A stretch of 64,000 bases of DNA from Escherichia phage FFH2. A model generated the notes under the pieces. The model saw only the letters and a list, made by a program, of their open reading frames with translations. It searched no databases and was not told the DNA's origin. The position numbers were made by a program, and so were the translations under genes. The stretch is from sequence record KJ190158, one strand, 5' to 3'. Shown in pieces: positions 10,327 to 55,538 of the stretch (positions are counted from its first letter, which is position 1; the number at the start of each line of letters is the position of its first letter).

Positions 10327-10605
10327 ATGAGCTGTGAAAAATCTTTTTTCTTTATTATTTACGGTAAAGATAACTGCCCACATTGTGTAAGAGCAAAAGA
10401 ATTTGCAGTCAGTAAGGGTCTGCCTTTTGTATATAAGACACTTGGCGAGGGTTACACAAAAGAAGAGCTTATTGAGAAGTGCAGTCCAATCGTACCCAGA
10501 ACGTTGCCGCAGATCTTCTTAGAAAGTAATCTTGAAAGTGTCCATATAGGCGGTGCCGACGATTTCATCTCTTTTGTTAAAAATGGTTTTGGAGAGAAAA
10601 AGTGA
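10327..10605 (+). CDS. Glutaredoxin/thioredoxin-like redoxin
   Basis: CPHC redox motif in a 92-aa protein inside the nrd cluster. Confidence 0.7.
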   Translation: MSCEKSFFFIIYGKDNCPHCVRAKEFAVSKGLPFVYKTLGEGYTKEELIEKCSPIVPRTLPQIFLESNLESVHIGGADDFISFVKNGFGEKK

Positions 10606-11462
10606 AAGTTGTAAAACGGGACGGTAGAGAAGAGTTCTATAACGGAATTAAGGTGATCAAGGCGGCAGAGTCCGCCTTACTTGAGTCTGGACATACTGAA
10701 GAAGAAGCTTACCGGATCGCCTGCGCGGTTAATGAAGTTGTTGCTAACAATCTACCAACCGACCAGTGCACGATCTCTGTAAAAAATATCCATATCCTTG
10801 TTGAAGACGCTCTTATGGATATGGGTTTAAAATGTGCAGCCAGAGAATACATCCAGTATAGGCAGACAAGAGATAATAACAGAGAGGCAGGTGGAAAACT
10901 GCTTGCAGATATTAGTGGCTTCTTGGATCGCACTTGTGATGAATTTACAAAAGAAAACGCAAATAAGCCTACCAATCATGTACACACTCATCGTGACCTG
11001 CTTGCAGGCATCCTTAGCAAACACCTTGCATCAACACAGATCCTGACAGACCGTGTCTCAGAAGAGCACAATAAAGGCTTCATCCATGTGCATGATCTTG
11101 ACTACTTGATCAGTCCGTTAACAAACTGTTGTTTGGTAAATTATCCAGATATGTTGGAAAACGGATTCAACATTGGTAACGCCCATGTCAGTAAGCCGAA
11201 GTCAATAGGGGTTGCAACAACAATCCTTAGCCAAATCTCTAGTGCAGTAGCTAGTGCTCAATATGGAGGTCAGACTATGAGCCATATTGATCATTATCTG
11301 GCACAGTATGCTGAAGCGACCTATGAGAAGAACCTTAAATTTTGCCAGGAACATTGGTTGCCAGATGCTGAGACTGTTGCAATGCAAATGACAGATAAAG
11401 ACGTATTTGACAGCATGCAGACTTTGCTCTATCAAATCAATACGTTAACCTCTGTCAACGGT
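10602..11462 (+). CDS. nrdD: Anaerobic ribonucleotide reductase NrdD, exon 1
   Basis: ATP-cone VVKRDGREE; ends ...NTLTSVNG matching NrdD ...NTLHTANG before conserved QTPF. Confidence 0.8.
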
Positions 11463-12260
11463 TAACAAACTGGCCGTTGTAAAACTCTCCTAACCTCATA
11501 AGAGGGGTCGGTAAATCCGGCTAACGGGGAACGCTAAGGCGAAAGCTATGCCAATCCCGTGACTAGTTCTTACAGGAGTTGGAACGGTTGTAACGACTAA
11601 CGAAAGGCAGAGATGCTTGACAAACATTTCTGAACCAAGTAGTGTAGAGGTTAGTTGAAATACTAACTTCGAAATGGAGAGGCTCTATGAAAAAGATCAT
11701 TCTTAATGGTGAAGAATCAAACTATGTGATTGATGAGGTTGGAAACGTATACGGAAAACGTGGAATGCTACACCCAATATTGTGGGGAGGTTATGGAAAA
11801 GGTAACAAGCATGTTAAACGCCGTTATATGTACTCTTTCAACCACAAAGGTAAAAAGATTCGAATCCAAACCTCAAGGATTGTTGCCTTGTATTGTTTGC
11901 CAGATGTCCCAGAAGACCCTGAAAACTGGGAAGTGAATCATAAAGACGGCAATACATTGAATGATCATCCGTCTAACCTAGAGTGGGTTTTGCCGGAAGA
12001 TAATAAGAGACATGCTTTCCGAACAGGGCTTTGCCCAGGCAAGTGCTATAGGAAAGTGCAGGCATACAAAGGGAAAACCTTGGTGGGTGAATATCCTTCA
12101 CTCTATGCCTGTGCAAAAGCCTTAAATTTGAACGTAGGTAACGTTCATAGGGCTATCGAAGGAAATGCCGAAGGTAAGCATCTCACAATAAAGGGTTATT
12201 ATCTTATTGAAGTAGAGTAAGAGATAGTCTGGCCCTGTGGAAACACAGGGGAGGAGACAG
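11463..12260 (+). mobile_element. Group I intron interrupting nrdD, carrying an HNH homing endonuclease ORF
   Basis: Exon 1 ends on U, insert ends on G, splicing restores in-frame NGQTPF; P7-like gactag/tagtc pair; in-frame stop at intron start. Confidence 0.7.
11687..12220 (+). CDS. HNH homing endonuclease (intron-encoded)
   Basis: EVNHKDGNTLNDHPSNLEWV HNH motif; ggagagg RBS. Confidence 0.75.
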   Translation: MKKIILNGEESNYVIDEVGNVYGKRGMLHPILWGGYGKGNKHVKRRYMYSFNHKGKKIRIQTSRIVALYCLPDVPEDPENWEVNHKDGNTLNDHPSNLEWVLPEDNKRHAFRTGLCPGKCYRKVQAYKGKTLVGEYPSLYACAKALNLNVGNVHRAIEGNAEGKHLTIKGYYLIEVE

Positions 12261-13523
12261 CAGACTCCATTCATCACATTAAGTTTAGGACTGGATACCT
12301 CGGTCTTTGGTAGAATGATTACCAAAAATTACTTGAAAGTCCACAAAATGGGTCTTGGTGAAGAACGTATCACACCTGTGTTCCCTAAAGTGCTGTTCTT
12401 CCTAGAAGAGGGTGTCAACATGAACCCTGGAGATCCTAACTATGATTTGAAAAGATTGGCTCTGGAATGCTCTGCAGAGCGGATTTATCCTGACTTTGTT
12501 TCTGTTCCACTAAATCGTAAAGTGACAGGCTCGACAGATGGTAAAGTAACGAGCATGGGTTGCCGGAGTTTTCTTAGCAAATACAATGACTTGGAAACAG
12601 GCGAGGAGAAATACCTTGGCAGATTTAACTTAGGCGTTGTTAGCCTTAACCTGCCAATGATTGCGGCAAAAGCTAAAACGGAAGGTGTTGATTTCTTTGC
12701 AGTTCTTGACGAATACTTGGATCTTGCATACGAGGCTCACCTTGTAAGGGTTAACCGTCTAAAAGGAACAAAGGCAGGGCAGAACCCTATCATGTGGTGT
12801 GAAGGCGCTCTTGCTCGCCTGGATCCTGAAGAGAGTATTGATAAACTCTTCTATGACGGGTACGCTTCCATCAGTATTGGGTATATTGGTGTGTATGAAA
12901 CCTGTCAGATTTTGGGCAGAGAGGGTGACAAGGCTTTAGCTCTTGGAATCCTTCAGCACATGAAAGATGCTTGTGAGCGATATAAGAAGGAAAGTGGACT
13001 AGCATTTAGCTTGTACGGCACCCCTTCTGAGAGTTTATGCTATAAAGCTGCAACCTGTCTGGATCGTGAATATCCAGAAGTGTTGAAGCACGAGCATGAA
13101 TACCTCACCAACAGTTTCCATCAGCCAGTATGGATCAATAGTTCACCTTTTGATAAGTGGAAGTATGAAGAAGGTTTTGCTATGATCTCTTCTGGTGGCA
13201 ACATTGGATATATAGAGACACCTAACCTGAAAAACAACCTGGATGCTTTAGAGGCTCTTGTTGACTTCGGGTATAAACACATTATGTATTTTGGTATTAA
13301 CCAACCTGTGGATAAATGTCTCAAGTGTGGTTTCTCTGGTGAGTTCAGTGCAACAGCTAAAGGCTTTGTATGCCCAGAGTGTGGAAACCATGAAGAGGGA
13401 ACGATCAGTGTAATTCGACGTGTGTCCGGATACCTTTCCAGTCCTAACTCCCGTCCTTACAATAAAGGTAAGCAAGCGGAAGTTATCGAGCGAGTTAAGC
13501 ACTATGGAAGTTGTAGTTGCTGA
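12261..13523 (+). CDS. nrdD: Anaerobic ribonucleotide reductase NrdD, exon 2
   Basis: Begins QTPFITL; C-terminal Zn-ribbon CLKCG..CPECG and glycyl-radical motif RRVSGYL. Confidence 0.8.
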   Translation, partial: QTPFITLSLGLDTSVFGRMITKNYLKVHKMGLGEERITPVFPKVLFFLEEGVNMNPGDPNYDLKRLALECSAERIYPDFVSVPLNRKVTGSTDGKVTSMGCRSFLSKYNDLETGEEKYLGRFNLGVVSLNLPMIAAKAKTEGVDFFAVLDEYLDLAYEAHLVRVNRLKGTKAGQNPIMWCEGALARLDPEESIDKLFYDGYASISIGYIGVYETCQILGREGDKALALGILQHMKDACERYKKESGLAFSLYGTPSESLCYKAATCLDREYPEVLKHEHEYLTNSFHQPVWINSSPFDKWKYEEGFAMISSGGNIGYIETPNLKNNLDALEALVDFGYKHIMYFGINQPVDKCLKCGFSGEFSATAKGFVCPECGNHEEGTISVIRRVSGYLSSPNSRPYNKGKQAEVIERVKHYGSCSC

Positions 13524-51186: not shown

Positions 51187-51540
51187 TTAGTGACAATCAC
51201 CCCAATTACGACCACACAAGTATTCACCTGTGATCTGGAACGGGACTCCCATCATTTTAGAAGCTTGCCAGAAGCAATGTACCACCATTTCGCCCACAGG
51301 ACTCCAGATAAGTTCAAGCTTTCCGTCATCGTTCAAGATAGGATCGTACACCGTGTTTCCGTCTCTGTCAACCACTTCGTTTCCGTCCTCATCCTTGCGT
51401 GCCTTTTTGTACTTATGACCGTCGAACACATGAAGTTTGGCCTCCTGCTCTGCCTTAAATGCTTCCAGTTCTTCGATTGTGTCGAAGGTGTACACAGTCT
51501 TATACTTCGGTGTGTCAGGGACTTGAAGCTGATATTCATC
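51187..51540 (-). CDS. DNA polymerase family A, exon 2 (C-terminal, begins DE of motif C)
   Basis: Begins DEYQLQV completing YYH-DE; ends GRNWGDCH like T7 pol terminal GPNWAICH. Confidence 0.75.
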   Translation of the reverse strand, partial: DEYQLQVPDTPKYKTVYTFDTIEELEAFKAEQEAKLHVFDGHKYKKARKDEDGNEVVDRDGNTVYDPILNDDGKLELIWSPVGEMVVHCFWQASKMMGVPFQITGEYLCGRNWGDCH

Positions 51541-52383
51541 CATCTGTTCAGGTAGGTCGTTAAGCTACCCCGCACCATTACGTGCATAGCCATACAGTTT
51601 CCTGTATGGATCGGACTACCTCACTGCCTTGGTAACAAGGCACCTCCCATTTCGACCGCACTTGCTGGCCTACTCTACTCGCTTCTTCACACCAACCTAT
51701 GTTGGAGCTATGCTTTCGATAGTCTCTGAACGTTACTACCAGGTGTAGTTTTTAGAGATATGTTTCCACTGTCTTCTTTGCTTTATAGCCCTGACGGTCT
51801 CATAAGGATATCCAAGATCCCTAATCTCGCATTGTCGTAGACCACTCTGCAACAGTTCGCAAATCTCTATTACCTCATCTTCTGTCAGCACAGCGTTAGC
51901 ATTATACTCACCAACTGGCCTTACTCTGAGGTCATTATCATAGGCGTGCTTGATATTTCCACCAGGGGTGGTCCATTCTAGGTTCCAGTATGCATTGTTG
52001 TACTTATTCCCATCCTTATGGTTCACCCATGTGAGTCTTTCAGGATCTGGGTTTGATACAAAGCATTCAGCAACCAGGTGGTGGACACCTTTTGTGCACT
52101 GCTTCCCCTCGATTAGCATGGTTACGCAAAGGTAACCTCTACCATTATCAAAACAAAACATTGTTGTATGATCACGTTTCGATAAAGGTATTGTTCCATC
52201 ATCAAACACGGTATACCCGTGATAATCAGCTGTTCTAGCCATTTTAACTACACCCCTTTAGTCTTCGCTGCGGATTAGCATATTGAGCTTTTACCATACT
52301 CAGGTGTAAAAGTCAACTTAGCTTCCCCGTCAATTAAAGAGGTTATTCGACATAGATTACTCTATGAAGCCACAATGTTATTT
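51541..52383 (-). mobile_element. Group I intron in DNA polymerase gene, carrying an HNH homing endonuclease ORF
   Basis: Insert splits HDE motif; exon 1 ends on U, insert ends on G; agacta/tagtc P7-like pair in 195-nt 3' core. Confidence 0.7.
51736..52242 (-). CDS. HNH homing endonuclease (intron-encoded)
   Basis: VNHKDGNKYNNAYWNLEWTTPGGNIKH HNH motif; RBS aaagggg. Confidence 0.7.
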   Translation of the reverse strand: MARTADYHGYTVFDDGTIPLSKRDHTTMFCFDNGRGYLCVTMLIEGKQCTKGVHHLVAECFVSNPDPERLTWVNHKDGNKYNNAYWNLEWTTPGGNIKHAYDNDLRVRPVGEYNANAVLTEDEVIEICELLQSGLRQCEIRDLGYPYETVRAIKQRRQWKHISKNYTW

Positions 52384-54807
52384 ATGGTAATAAATAATAC
52401 GACGAACACCTTCATCGTACCACCCACGCTTCACCATTTGGTGGTGCATGAGTATCCCAACTAAGTCACACAACGATGCACCACCATTTTGTTGGTATGC
52501 ATTAAGTAAAGAGTGTTTAGATCGGGTCCAGATGGCATGACCATCAAAAGAGTAGATAAACTTCTTACCCGTTGCTTCCCAGAATTTCTCCAGATCCTCT
52601 TTACGGCCCTTAAGACCAGGGTTGGCATCCCAAAGCGCATCGATTACCCTTTGTCCCAACTCTGGAGAGATGTCCAGCATATCTGCAACTTTATCTTTTT
52701 GTGCCCCGTACATAACCCCATACGTGATAGGTTTACCGTCGTTACGGGACACCTCTCTGCCTGCTACTTTTGTATATGCCTCAGCATTGTTTTGGTGTGC
52801 GTCTCCGTTACTTACAACATCATAATACAAGCCGTTGTCGAACTCAAAGGCACCCCAAGCCCCGATAAGCTGCTCTAAGTTGGACCCGTCAATACCGATC
52901 TCAAAGTATCCAGGAGGAACACCCCACAGACTACGCATCTCTTTACCCATAACCACTTTAGGAGATGGTTTAGGCATGTTTGCACAAATACTGTGTTTCT
53001 GTCTGGAAGTGTTTGTTAATCCAGAGCTTTTAGCAGGAAGCTTATGGTCAATCTTCAAACGTGGGTGATTAAGAAGACCAGTGTCAACCTTATCCTCCTT
53101 GATTGGATCAAGTACCGATCTGCGGTTTCGCAATGATAACCATAAGACGATATCTTTAGCCATCTCTCCGTTCAATTTTTCAAGATTCGGACACAGGTGT
53201 CCAAACGTATCTTTCAGTTGCGGAGAAGTAATAAGTGCCCTAGCTTTTCTACGTATTTTCCCGAATACTTCCTTTTTAATCCTTTCGGAGTTAGGAAAGC
53301 TTCGGAACTTGTGCACTGTTGTCTGAAACTTAGCATCAGTTTTGTTCCAGAAGTTGATAATTAGGTCACAATACTCTGACTCTAAAAGCTCGTCCATGTA
53401 TGCATATACTCGTGCATCAACATCTGCATCAGGTAGAGCTTTCTTCTTGCTGTCTTTAGTTACATCCTTAGTTCTCCACATTGTCGGAAGCCAACCAGCA
53501 CTGATCAGGTATCGCTTAATGTCGTCCTGATTGCTGATTTTCATAGGTATCTTGCAGTCAGGCATTCGCTTCTGCTGCAGATCGCTTATTGCCTGATCCA
53601 TCAGCTCTTTAGGCAAAGGTTGTGGTGTGGAGGTGCCCTTAATATAGCCTCTCAAGAAATCAGCCATCTTATCGTGGTCTTTGCAGCCCATCTCTTCACA
53701 CCATTTTATCCCCATTTTACTGACATCTCCTGTGGAGGTAAATGCTCGCTTAGGTGGGGCTTTGAACTCTAAAGCGCTCATGTCTACAGGATAGCCAAGC
53801 TTATCTTTTAACCATTTCCAACCATTATTGGAGATTGTCCCATCTTGGTTAAACGGCTTTTCAGGGAACTTGGGCCGCTGAGACATTGACAGCTCTTTTA
53901 AAGGTAGTTGTGGTTCAACACGATCAGCTATTTCTTTCATCCACGCATCGCAACGGTCACGTAAAGCAATAGCCCCGTCTATGTCGAAATACACACCCTG
54001 ACGGGCCTGCAGCTCCATCAGGAAGTGCTGCAGCATGCCTCGACGTAGTGCGTTCTTCCAGGTGATCTTCTTGAACCCTTTCGGCTTCTCTTTGGCTGGA
54101 TCGTACATAAAGTTCTGCATGTCAGATTTGCCGTAGAATACACCTTTTGATTCCGCTACCAGCTCTTTCCAGAGCAGCTCCTGGATGATAACGTCCTCGA
54201 ATACACGATCCACATACTTCCACAACGGAAGATCGCGCCAGTCATCAATTTGAACTTTCTGGTTACCAAGGGCGTAGCCCCATGCCATAAGGCCGTGAGG
54301 ACCAACAGGCTGCATTTTCTTAGTAACCGGGTTGAATACAGAGTCCGGACAACCTTTTGGTAAAGGGCGATCAGGCCACAAGATTCGGCTCATCGCCAAC
54401 GTATCAAACAGGTTAACCTGGTGGTCGTTGATAGTCCCCATACATTTAGGATCACGGAACATATCAAAATGAATACCGGATAATCTCTCCATCAGCATAA
54501 AGTCATAACTGTAGCAGTTATGGCAGTTCAAAGCTGTTGGTGACCAGTCGGAATTGCCTGTAAGCCAACCCTCCAACTCCGAAAAATCTGCTATGCGAAC
54601 TTCAAAATCCTTATAAAGAGTTTTCTTTGCCAGAATAAAGTTCTTAGCCTTCTCTATATCCTCCTCGGAGTAGTGTGTGCGGTCATTTAGAGGAAGGAAC
54701 AGCATAAAACGGTTCTTATTCAGCTCTTTAAACAGGCCGCAATGATAATAAAGATCTGGGTCTTCCAAAAGCCCTGAGGCCTCCAGATCGAAGCACCAAT
54801 TACTCAT
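52384..54807 (-). CDS. DNA polymerase family A, exon 1 (3'-5' exo and polymerase motifs A/B)
   Basis: Exo I CFDLEASG; motif B KPITYGVMYGAQ; region QQNGGASLCDLVGIL..KRGWYDEG aligns with T7 pol just upstream of HDE. Confidence 0.8.
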
Positions 54808-55538
54808 ACTGTCTCCTCCTGTGTCTTCTCAGCATTCTTTCTTGCAGCTATTGCATCGTCCCTGTTCTTGAAATACCCAAGGCATTTCCTTTTACCATCT
54901 ACATGAATTCTGGCTACCCATCTTTCATGGGTTTTATCCCAATTCACCCCTGAGCAACCGCTGGTGTTATTATACTGCACGGCTCTTCCACTCTTGTGCG
55001 AAAAACCATTATCTTCGAAGAACTTTCTTGCCCACTCTGCCTCTTCAAAAGTTCTGTACTGGCCTAGCCAGACCCTTTCACCTACAGAGTCTGTGCCTTG
55101 AGCTACCCATGCCCCTCTTTCTTCAGAATAGTGCACCCCGACCCTGCCAGATTTGTTGTTGCTACGAGGTATCTTGCAACTTTTCTTTTTGTTATCTGTA
55201 GGTTCGAGTAGTTGCAAATTATGAATACTGTTGTCAGCCACACCACCTGTTTCCCTTATCTCCTTGATGTGGTCAACCTCATACCCTTCCGGTACAGGAC
55301 CGTTAAACATTTCCCAGATTATAACGTGGGCACCTTTAGTGCAATGCTTTCCTAGACTAACCACAGGCCTGCCATCAGCATCTTGCCCCTTGTCAGCTCT
55401 GGAGCCTGCTGAAGTTTTAACATATCCTACACCGCTGCCTGCCAGAATGTCTATCTTCCAAAAAAGATTTTGACCGTCATACTCCAATATTTCTGACCAC
55501 AAGTGATTAGCTACACAGTGATCTCTGAACTCGTTCAT
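54804..55538 (-). CDS. Free-standing HNH endonuclease with AP2-like DNA-binding repeats
   Basis: YEVDHIKEIRETGGVADNSIHNLQLL HNH; two GV(H/N)..ERG/W..WVA AP2-like repeats. Confidence 0.65.
   Translation of the reverse strand: MNEFRDHCVANHLWSEILEYDGQNLFWKIDILAGSGVGYVKTSAGSRADKGQDADGRPVVSLGKHCTKGAHVIIWEMFNGPVPEGYEVDHIKEIRETGGVADNSIHNLQLLEPTDNKKKSCKIPRSNNKSGRVGVHYSEERGAWVAQGTDSVGERVWLGQYRTFEEAEWARKFFEDNGFSHKSGRAVQYNNTSGCSGVNWDKTHERWVARIHVDGKRKCLGYFKNRDDAIAARKNAEKTQEETV

Follow-up and report, generated by a model that had tools for sequence, protein, structure and literature searches.

A predicted group I intron with an HNH endonuclease gene within catalytic motif C of the DNA polymerase gene of Escherichia phage FFH2

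The DNA polymerase locus of Escherichia phage FFH2 (sequence record KJ190158) raises the question of why a gene for a family A DNA polymerase stops in the middle of its catalytic motif C and resumes 843 nucleotides (nt) further on, behind a gene for an HNH endonuclease. The locus was analysed in a window of 64,000 nt, the whole stretch of DNA under study, to which all coordinates refer, and all features of the polymerase locus are read on its minus strand (-). This region of the window shows 96–98% identity to E. coli phages of the rV5-like kind (genus Vequintavirus), among them WalterGehring, ECML-10, APECc02 and FV3. The answer that we consider very probable is that the T7-like family A polymerase gene of these rV5-like Vequintavirus phages is interrupted by a mobile intron between the His and Asp codons of motif C, and that this intron belongs to group I, subgroup IA2, and holds a gene for an HNH endonuclease resembling I-HmuI in its P6a/P6b loop.

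In the unspliced DNA the polymerase is found in two open reading frames (ORFs). The first (54807..52378, -) has 809 codons and a C-terminal end reading ...GVRRIIYYH-K-stop, and the other, the third ORF of the locus (51543..51187, -), has 118 codons, starting M-DEYQLQV and ending GRNWGDCH; the stop after ...RRIIYYH-K and both ends of the downstream ORF are exactly as given in an earlier sequence-only reading of this DNA. When 52383..51541 (843 nt) is taken out, CAU meets GAU and a single frame of 925 codons results (...RRIIYYHDEYQLQV...), so that the joining of 52384 to 51540 proposed in that reading does produce YYHDEYQ in one open frame. Exon 1 (52384..54807, -) thereby comprises 808 codons and ends ...RRIIYYH, reading on when unspliced into AAA-TAA, the first intron bases, and exon 2 (51187..51540, -) comprises 117 codons and the stop codon, begins DEYQLQV and directly continues exon 1 in relatives that lack the insert. 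The predicted ligated-exon junction reads ...UAUUACCAU|GAUGAAUAU....

A phmmer comparison of the spliced C-terminal third with solved structures revealed T7 DNA polymerase (gp5, E = 1.4e-13), with motif A of the window (GIDGSNLE) aligned with T7 GIDASGLE and motif C (IIYYHDEYQL) aligned with T7 MAWVHDEIQV across the junction. Since IIYYHDEYQL sits on MAWVHDEIQV, the splice rebuilds motif C, and only after the splice do the family A hallmarks, motif A (D..S..E) and motif C (HDE), stand in a single polypeptide. Exon 1 alone reached 27.9 bits with Pfam DNA_pol_A, under the cutoff of 34.3, and exon 2 matches the C-terminal part of the phage DNA polymerase family phrog_8888 (E = 1.3e-58). A resemblance of GRNWGDCH to the T7 C-terminus, which had also been suggested, could not be shown, as the phmmer alignment of the spliced polymerase to T7 ends just past HDE and exon 2 alone gave no polymerase match among solved structures, and none to T7.

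The insert (51541..52383, -) starts after U52384, opening AAAUAA right after this U, and closes ...ACAGAUG with the terminal G51541, its ends being set by insert-free alleles. It consists of 141 nt 5' of an inner ORF, the ORF itself, of 168 amino acids (aa), and 195 nt 3' of the ORF; the counts and coordinates first put forward for it (843 nt with a 195-nt 3' part, following U and ending in G) all proved exact. A 179-aa peptide spanning the predicted junction was searched against phage genomes. It matched one unbroken stretch with 98–100% identity in JeffSchatz, pangalan, Murica, CarlMeissner and ECP26, and two pieces in others, and insert-free alleles including JeffSchatz, Murica and pangalan match the predicted spliced protein at 100% over the 179 aa. 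The DNA of JeffSchatz and Murica reads ...TATTACCAT|GATGAG... with zero bases between the exons, and in JeffSchatz the polymerase is annotated as one coding sequence (CDS) of 2,778 nt, equal to 925 codons and a stop. The insertion point is fixed, because the bases flanking each boundary differ. Distant polymerases are also contiguous at the junction, namely those of 4MG, Seunavirus, Certrevirus, Vibrio phage ICP1 and Pseudomonas PAK_P1-like phages. The comparison with intron-less relatives, named earlier as a check, showed the same protein encoded as one chain with no insert at exactly this point, and the match of the insert-free alleles at the junction puts the observation far beyond chance.

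For the analysis of the insert as RNA, 13 distinct homologous introns, all at the His|Asp position (from Vequintavirus, Avunavirus, Seunavirus, Certrevirus, a Vibrio phage and an IMG/VR contig), were aligned by conserved blocks and curated, with N padding so that MAFFT kept the columns, and helices P1, P10, P2–P9, P7.1, P7.2, P9.1 and P9.2 were written out. These helices, 15 in all, comprise 71 pairs. Canonical pairing was seen in 99.7% of the 908 cells, and compensatory changes on both sides were found in 37 of the 71 pairs. None of 500 shuffles reached the observed paired fraction or covariation score, and when the 3' partners were slid by 1–3 columns pairing fell to 34–44%. The conserved group I core (P3-P4-P5-P6, P7-P8-P9, the P3/P7 pseudoknot and the P7 bulge) is present in the alignment, and an unconstrained minimum free energy (MFE) fold of the whole 843-nt intron recovered P1, P2, the long-range P3, P5a/b, P6, P6a, P6b, P8 and P9.

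The 5' ribozyme segment (52243..52383, -) holds P1, the guide, P2, the 5' strand of P3, P4, P5/P5a/P5b, P4', P6 and the 5' strands of P6a and P6b, and the 3' segment of 195 nt (51541..51735, -) holds the 3' strands of P6a and P6, P7, P7.1, P7.2, P3', P8, P7', P9, P9.1, P9.2 and a tail to the terminal G, a base found in all alleles. The 8-nt internal guide sequence CAUUGUGG (52370..52377, -) pairs in P1 through GUGG with CCAU of exon 1 and in P10 through CAUU with GAUG of exon 2. The P1 U.G wobble at the 5' splice site is invariant in 13/13 homologs, and P10 (GAUG/CAUU) has four pairs with 96% of cells paired. The agacta/tagtc elements noticed earlier as P7-like are the two strands of P7: the 5' strand GAGACUA (51720..51726, -) is preceded by a bulged A, and the 3' strand UAGUCC (51613..51618, -) was placed by the covariation alignment. 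The bulged A stands beside an invariant G.C pair at the guanosine-binding-site position, and two of the six P7 pairs show compensatory change. According to PMC3428280, P7.1 and P7.2 joined by G-U-A are a mark of subgroup IA2; the insert has a P7.1 hairpin, GUA and then a 17-nt P7.2 hairpin, both of which covary, with P7.1 missing from two Vibrio-phage alleles. From its primary sequence and the covarying pairs, the insert is confidently predicted to be a group I intron of subgroup IA2.

The inner ORF (51736..52242, -; 507 nt) is predicted to be an I-HmuI-like HNH homing endonuclease gene. Its 168-aa product contains the HNH motif residues NHKDG (from residue 74), NLEW (from 87) and NIKH (from 96), and matches the phrog_59 HNH endonucleases with E = 1.5e-36; the best solved structure is I-HmuI (1U3E, E = 3e-5) over residues 34–100, with the core HKDGNK.NN..NL.W. 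That the insert carries an HNH endonuclease, as first read, is borne out by these two matches. GenBank already holds the identical 168-aa protein as the H-N-H homing endonuclease of phage FFH2, and the same protein was found on 69 contigs. The loop containing the ORF is closed by P6a (ACUA/UAGU, taking in the stop codon) and a P6b of 10 bp. The 5' strand of P6b, GGGUGUAGUU (52246..52255, -), overlaps a G-rich stretch resembling a Shine-Dalgarno sequence 5' of the HNH start codon, and its 3' strand, AACUACACCU (51741..51750, -), lies within the last codons of the HNH ORF and pairs with 52255..52246 in the unconstrained MFE fold. P6b may thus mask the ribosome-binding site of the endonuclease.

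The intron is already known, being annotated in near-identical phages at the same splice junction and having a homolog shown to splice. In the BASEL phages WalterGehring and MaxTheCat the polymerase CDS is annotated as a join, with boundaries that the authors placed by comparative genomics (PMC8594841). The junction found here, when applied to WalterGehring, gives exactly QXV85587.1, which is also equal to QBQ78111.1 (HdK5) and YP_011997695.1. In the Vequintavirinae counterparts (WalterGehring, MaxTheCat, HdK5 and CB7) the insertion site is identical, ...UAC CAU | ...G | GAU GA..., and the ribozyme backbone is homologous; WalterGehring has the same 168-aa HNH gene in P6a with 96% DNA identity. 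The intron of Pectobacterium phage CB7, starting ATTTATTACCAT|AAGTAACATTGTGG, shares site and backbone with the window intron; its HNH gene is a different one (127 aa), its P5 extends further, and the CB7 polymerase gene has one more intron upstream of it. Splicing of this CB7 intron, located between CB7_51 and CB7_49, was shown by reverse transcription PCR (RT-PCR) and Sanger sequencing (PMC7344957). The rV5 genome paper describes introns only for the terminase and treats the polymerase as 775 aa, and many public records, those of rV5, FV3, APECc02, navn and JLBYU08 among them, list the polymerase as two genes or its C-terminal exon as hypothetical. The main value of the present analysis is correct annotation, with one 925-aa enzyme as the probable true product instead of two genes.

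Two further systems offer comparisons. PMC3428280 reports that the T7-like phages PhiI and W31 have, at polymerase site 881 (E. coli Pol I numbering), introns of subgroup IA2 whose P6a holds an HNH ORF, and lists their endonuclease as I-TslI. By this description the PhiI/W31 intron and the window intron are alike in their T7-like host polymerase, in subgroup IA2 and in the HNH gene in P6a, and differ in that PhiI and W31 are podoviruses and the window belongs to a 137-kb myovirus. Common descent and independent use of the site may both be considered. Residues His881-Asp882-Glu883 of E. coli Pol I are motif C, and the PhiI/W31 site would therefore be the His|Asp position of the window. The SPO1 polymerase intron encoding I-HmuI resembles the window intron in belonging to group I, in interrupting the family A polymerase gene of a phage and in coding for an HNH endonuclease; enzymes of the I-HmuI type nick one strand. 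Introns of this type lie in the part of the gene for the fingers region (site 674, E. coli numbering), and the window intron lies in motif C.

In the mechanism proposed for the window the transcribed RNA would fold into the P1–P10 ribozyme, and an external guanosine would attack after U52384, held in its U.G wobble by GUGG of the guide. The freed end of exon 1 would next attack the 3' junction, just behind the terminal G51541, while CAUU, the adjoining part of the guide, keeps exon 2 in line, and the product would be an mRNA for the 925-aa polymerase with HDE restored. We infer that the encoded endonuclease is active and has a putative target in the ...UAUUACCAU|GAUGAG... region of insert-free alleles. 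In a mixed infection the HNH enzyme would most likely nick or cut insert-free polymerase alleles near the insertion site, and repair from intron-bearing genomes would copy the intron in (homing), which would account for its scattered occurrence among phages that are nearly identical.

Several points weigh against this account. The variable-length hairpins (P5, P6a, P7.1, P8, P9 and P9.2) were aligned from their bases or loops with the structure known, which favours the structure; the fixed-length blocks P2, P3, P4, P7, P7.2 and P9.1 covary too, without structure-guided aligning. On Rfam RF00028, with its curated gathering threshold of 50 bits, a scan of the whole window at the gathering threshold gave no match, and a permissive scan of 5.5 kb gave the window intron 26.8 bits (E = 7.6e-4) with its 5' half only. 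The low score is attributed to the 507-nt ORF, which interrupts P6 and splits the model, and the ORF-less alleles of relatives were therefore taken as the test. Here JLBYU08 (329 nt) scored 72.5 bits and navn and MaxTheCat (276 nt) 64.7 bits, rV5 itself having a 276-nt intron identical to the navn/MaxTheCat allele, and the allele of a PVP-SE1-like Salmonella phage scored 54.4 bits. The covariance-model search, which had been advised for this insert, was thus positive for the ORF-less alleles (72.5 and 64.7 bits, above threshold) and fell short for the window itself. Pfam HNH_3 gave the intron ORF 17.7 bits, below its cutoff of 24.8. Comparison of sequences establishes the boundaries, the covarying fold, the family to which the endonuclease belongs and the variable presence of the intron, and self-splicing of the window copy is predicted from its structure and from the CB7 homolog. 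Finally, every allele has NUG right before exon 2 (AUG in the window, UUG or GUG in others), on account of which independent translation of exon 2 is formally conceivable. With these points weighed, the HNH-encoding group I intron splitting the polymerase at motif C, as originally read, is supported by the boundaries, the covariation of the core, the guide pairing, the Rfam scores of the ORF-less alleles and the CB7 homolog.

The alternative that had been raised together with the intron is a polymerase made as two unspliced polypeptides of 809 aa (...YYHK) and 118 aa (MDEYQ...), with the insert as an endonuclease cassette splitting the gene. Both pieces are indeed ORFs, exon 2 has an NUG right before it, the NrdA of phage Aeh1, split by mobE and non-spliced, offers a precedent (cited in PMC7344957), and one intron-like insert of CB7, in a different gene, did not splice (PMC7344957). 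The CB7 insert at the same site as that of the window is, however, spliced (PMC7344957). The break would moreover part His from Asp-Glu within one catalytic motif, the sequence CGACCUACCUGAACAG before the exon-2 ATG is without a Shine-Dalgarno element, and alleles that lack the insert code for this polymerase as a single chain. A complete covarying ribozyme flanks the ORF and is kept in ORF-less alleles of 254–329 nt, for which a cassette would have no need. The two-polypeptide alternative is disfavoured by the split motif, the missing Shine-Dalgarno element and the one-chain insert-free alleles, and we regard it as very improbable.

Equally hard to credit is a real intron in the family of which the window copy has decayed, with splicing poor or absent and the phage impaired or living on residual splicing. 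The low Rfam score of the window copy would fit this, as would the homing-cycle model, in which introns and endonuclease genes degenerate once fixed; the score is nevertheless explained by the ORF in P6. In the window sequence every one of the 71 modelled pairs is canonical. Outside the P6a block, the curated alignment shows two aligned positions at which the window core and the 72.5-bit JLBYU08 allele differ. The HNH ORF is unbroken, its protein being the one found on the 69 contigs mentioned above, and near-identical HNH-bearing alleles occur in many plate-isolated phages. With every modelled pair canonical and the endonuclease gene whole, decay is unlikely. An intein or other in-frame protein-level element, for which the apparent intein of the relative Mangalyan in the same gene might speak, is refuted for the 843-nt insert by the in-frame stop two codons in (YYH-K-stop), and the HNH ORF lies in another frame with its own start; what the insert does show is evidence of RNA structure.

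If the insert is a mobile group I intron, presence/absence variation among near-identical genomes is expected, and this was seen when 60 of the 115 Vequintavirus records matching the spliced gene, evenly spaced, were sampled. No intron was present in 31 of the 60 records, an ORF-less intron of 276 nt in 12 and one of 329 nt in a single record, and the HNH intron of 842/843 nt in a further 12; three records had extra insertion(s), one of 969 nt and two larger, and one record was partial. Intron-less, ORF-less and endonuclease-bearing alleles were found among phages 93–98% identical, and the ORF-less alleles, which span 254–329 nt, keep the ribozyme. The same backbone was found with the 127-aa HNH gene in CB7 and phiTE and with an HNH gene of 163–172 aa in SSE121 and PBES02. 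Klebsiella phage K45PH128C2, a record with abundant pseudogene flags, served for one comparison only, in which its intron and the SSE121 intron proved identical. In the Salmonella phages SEW_6S and PVP-SE1 an intron with the same site and backbone has a 197-aa LAGLIDADG gene after the 5' strand of P7 (intron 192–785), and in these alleles P6a is a short ORF-less hairpin. Since the PVP-SE1-like alleles carry LAGLIDADG after P7, endonuclease gene and ribozyme appear to have come together on more than one independent occasion. The polymerase locus provides a clean natural series for the homing cycle, with no new mechanism.

Related introns at the His|Asp position were also found in two distant family A polymerases from IMG/VR (L030, ...IVYH|DEIQL, and L031, ...IEYH|DEVQL), one intron being 265 nt and ORF-less and the other measuring about 1,454 nt and containing one or more HNH-like ORFs. 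Three other IMG/VR pattern matches (L023, L024 and L029) had no coding exon upstream and were set aside as chance.

When analysing the exon sequence next to the insertion site, three synonymous third-position differences were noted at 51529–51535 of the window (exon 2 positions +6, +9 and +12; GAUGAAUAUCAG vs GAUGAGUACCAA). Here the window equals JLBYU08, unlike the five other close relatives compared, intron-less as well as intron-bearing, and Seunavirus and Certrevirus alleles read GAUGAAUACCAG at these sites. The differences could be a co-conversion tract or target-site variation.

One backbone, in every case at the polymerase His|Asp-Glu site, occurs in forms lacking an ORF, in forms whose P6a holds one or the other of two unrelated HNH genes, and in a form with a LAGLIDADG gene close to P7.1. 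Parts of it were recognised in another gene, that for the anaerobic ribonucleotide reductase (nrdD), as three nrdD introns of uncultured phages (IMG/VR L017, L018 and L027), located at ...HFH|D(I/M)DY..., share their first ~41 nt with the polymerase intron (CCAU|AAAUAAAAUUGUGGCUUU..., 77–85% identity), including the guide (AUUGUGG) and P2, and have unrelated P3–P6. The exon context CCAU|GAU is common to the polymerase and nrdD intron sites. These observations suggest, tentatively and with the balance still on the doubtful side, that one backbone acts as a modular carrier, with repeated swapping of endonuclease genes and with movement or module exchange between unrelated genes via the shared 7–8-nt target, for example by reverse splicing. 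Such swapping or cross-gene movement with natural intermediates has, to our knowledge, rarely been documented.

In the window itself nrdD is split by another likely group I intron, at 11463–12260 (+), in which an HNH ORF lies at 11687–12220. The nrdD pieces flanking it (10602–11465 and 12237–13523) read ...TLTSVNG | QTPFITLSLG.... It scored 27.7 bits on RF00028 (E = 0.0049), and P1 (AACGGU/GCCGUUG), P7 (ACGACUA/UAGUCU) and a GAAA-capped P9 are legible in its sequence. About 798 nt are absent at this site in rV5, JLBYU08, LL12 and many others, indicating a variable presence; its 3' boundary is placed by this length difference only.

Other insertions were seen around the polymerase gene. Directly upstream of it, with a 4-nt overlap with its start codon, lies a free-standing gene for a 244-aa HNH and AP2 endonuclease (54804–55538, -; Pfam HNH_3 43.8 bits, AP2 31 bits), which is also found in navn and WalterGehring and is not found in JLBYU08 and Mangalyan. 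Mangalyan (L003 3474–4442) has a 969-nt in-frame insertion in exon 1, after the equivalent of window codon 671 (...SNGDAH|QNN...), coding for 323 aa that start with Cys and end ...CGN, followed by Cys, with a weak match to the Hint domain (E = 8e-4); it looks like an intein. The same extra 969 nt are present in NHEP1, and YP-6 (+1245 nt) and JEP1 (+1297 nt) fit an intein together with an ORF-less intron by arithmetic only; the window is without the 969-nt insertion. About 16 unannotated GenBank MG0656xx records entitled 'Campylobacter phage' (host Campylobacter jejuni) are 86–98% identical to E. coli rV5-like phages over the polymerase and nrdD, and their Campylobacter jejuni host label looks doubtful.

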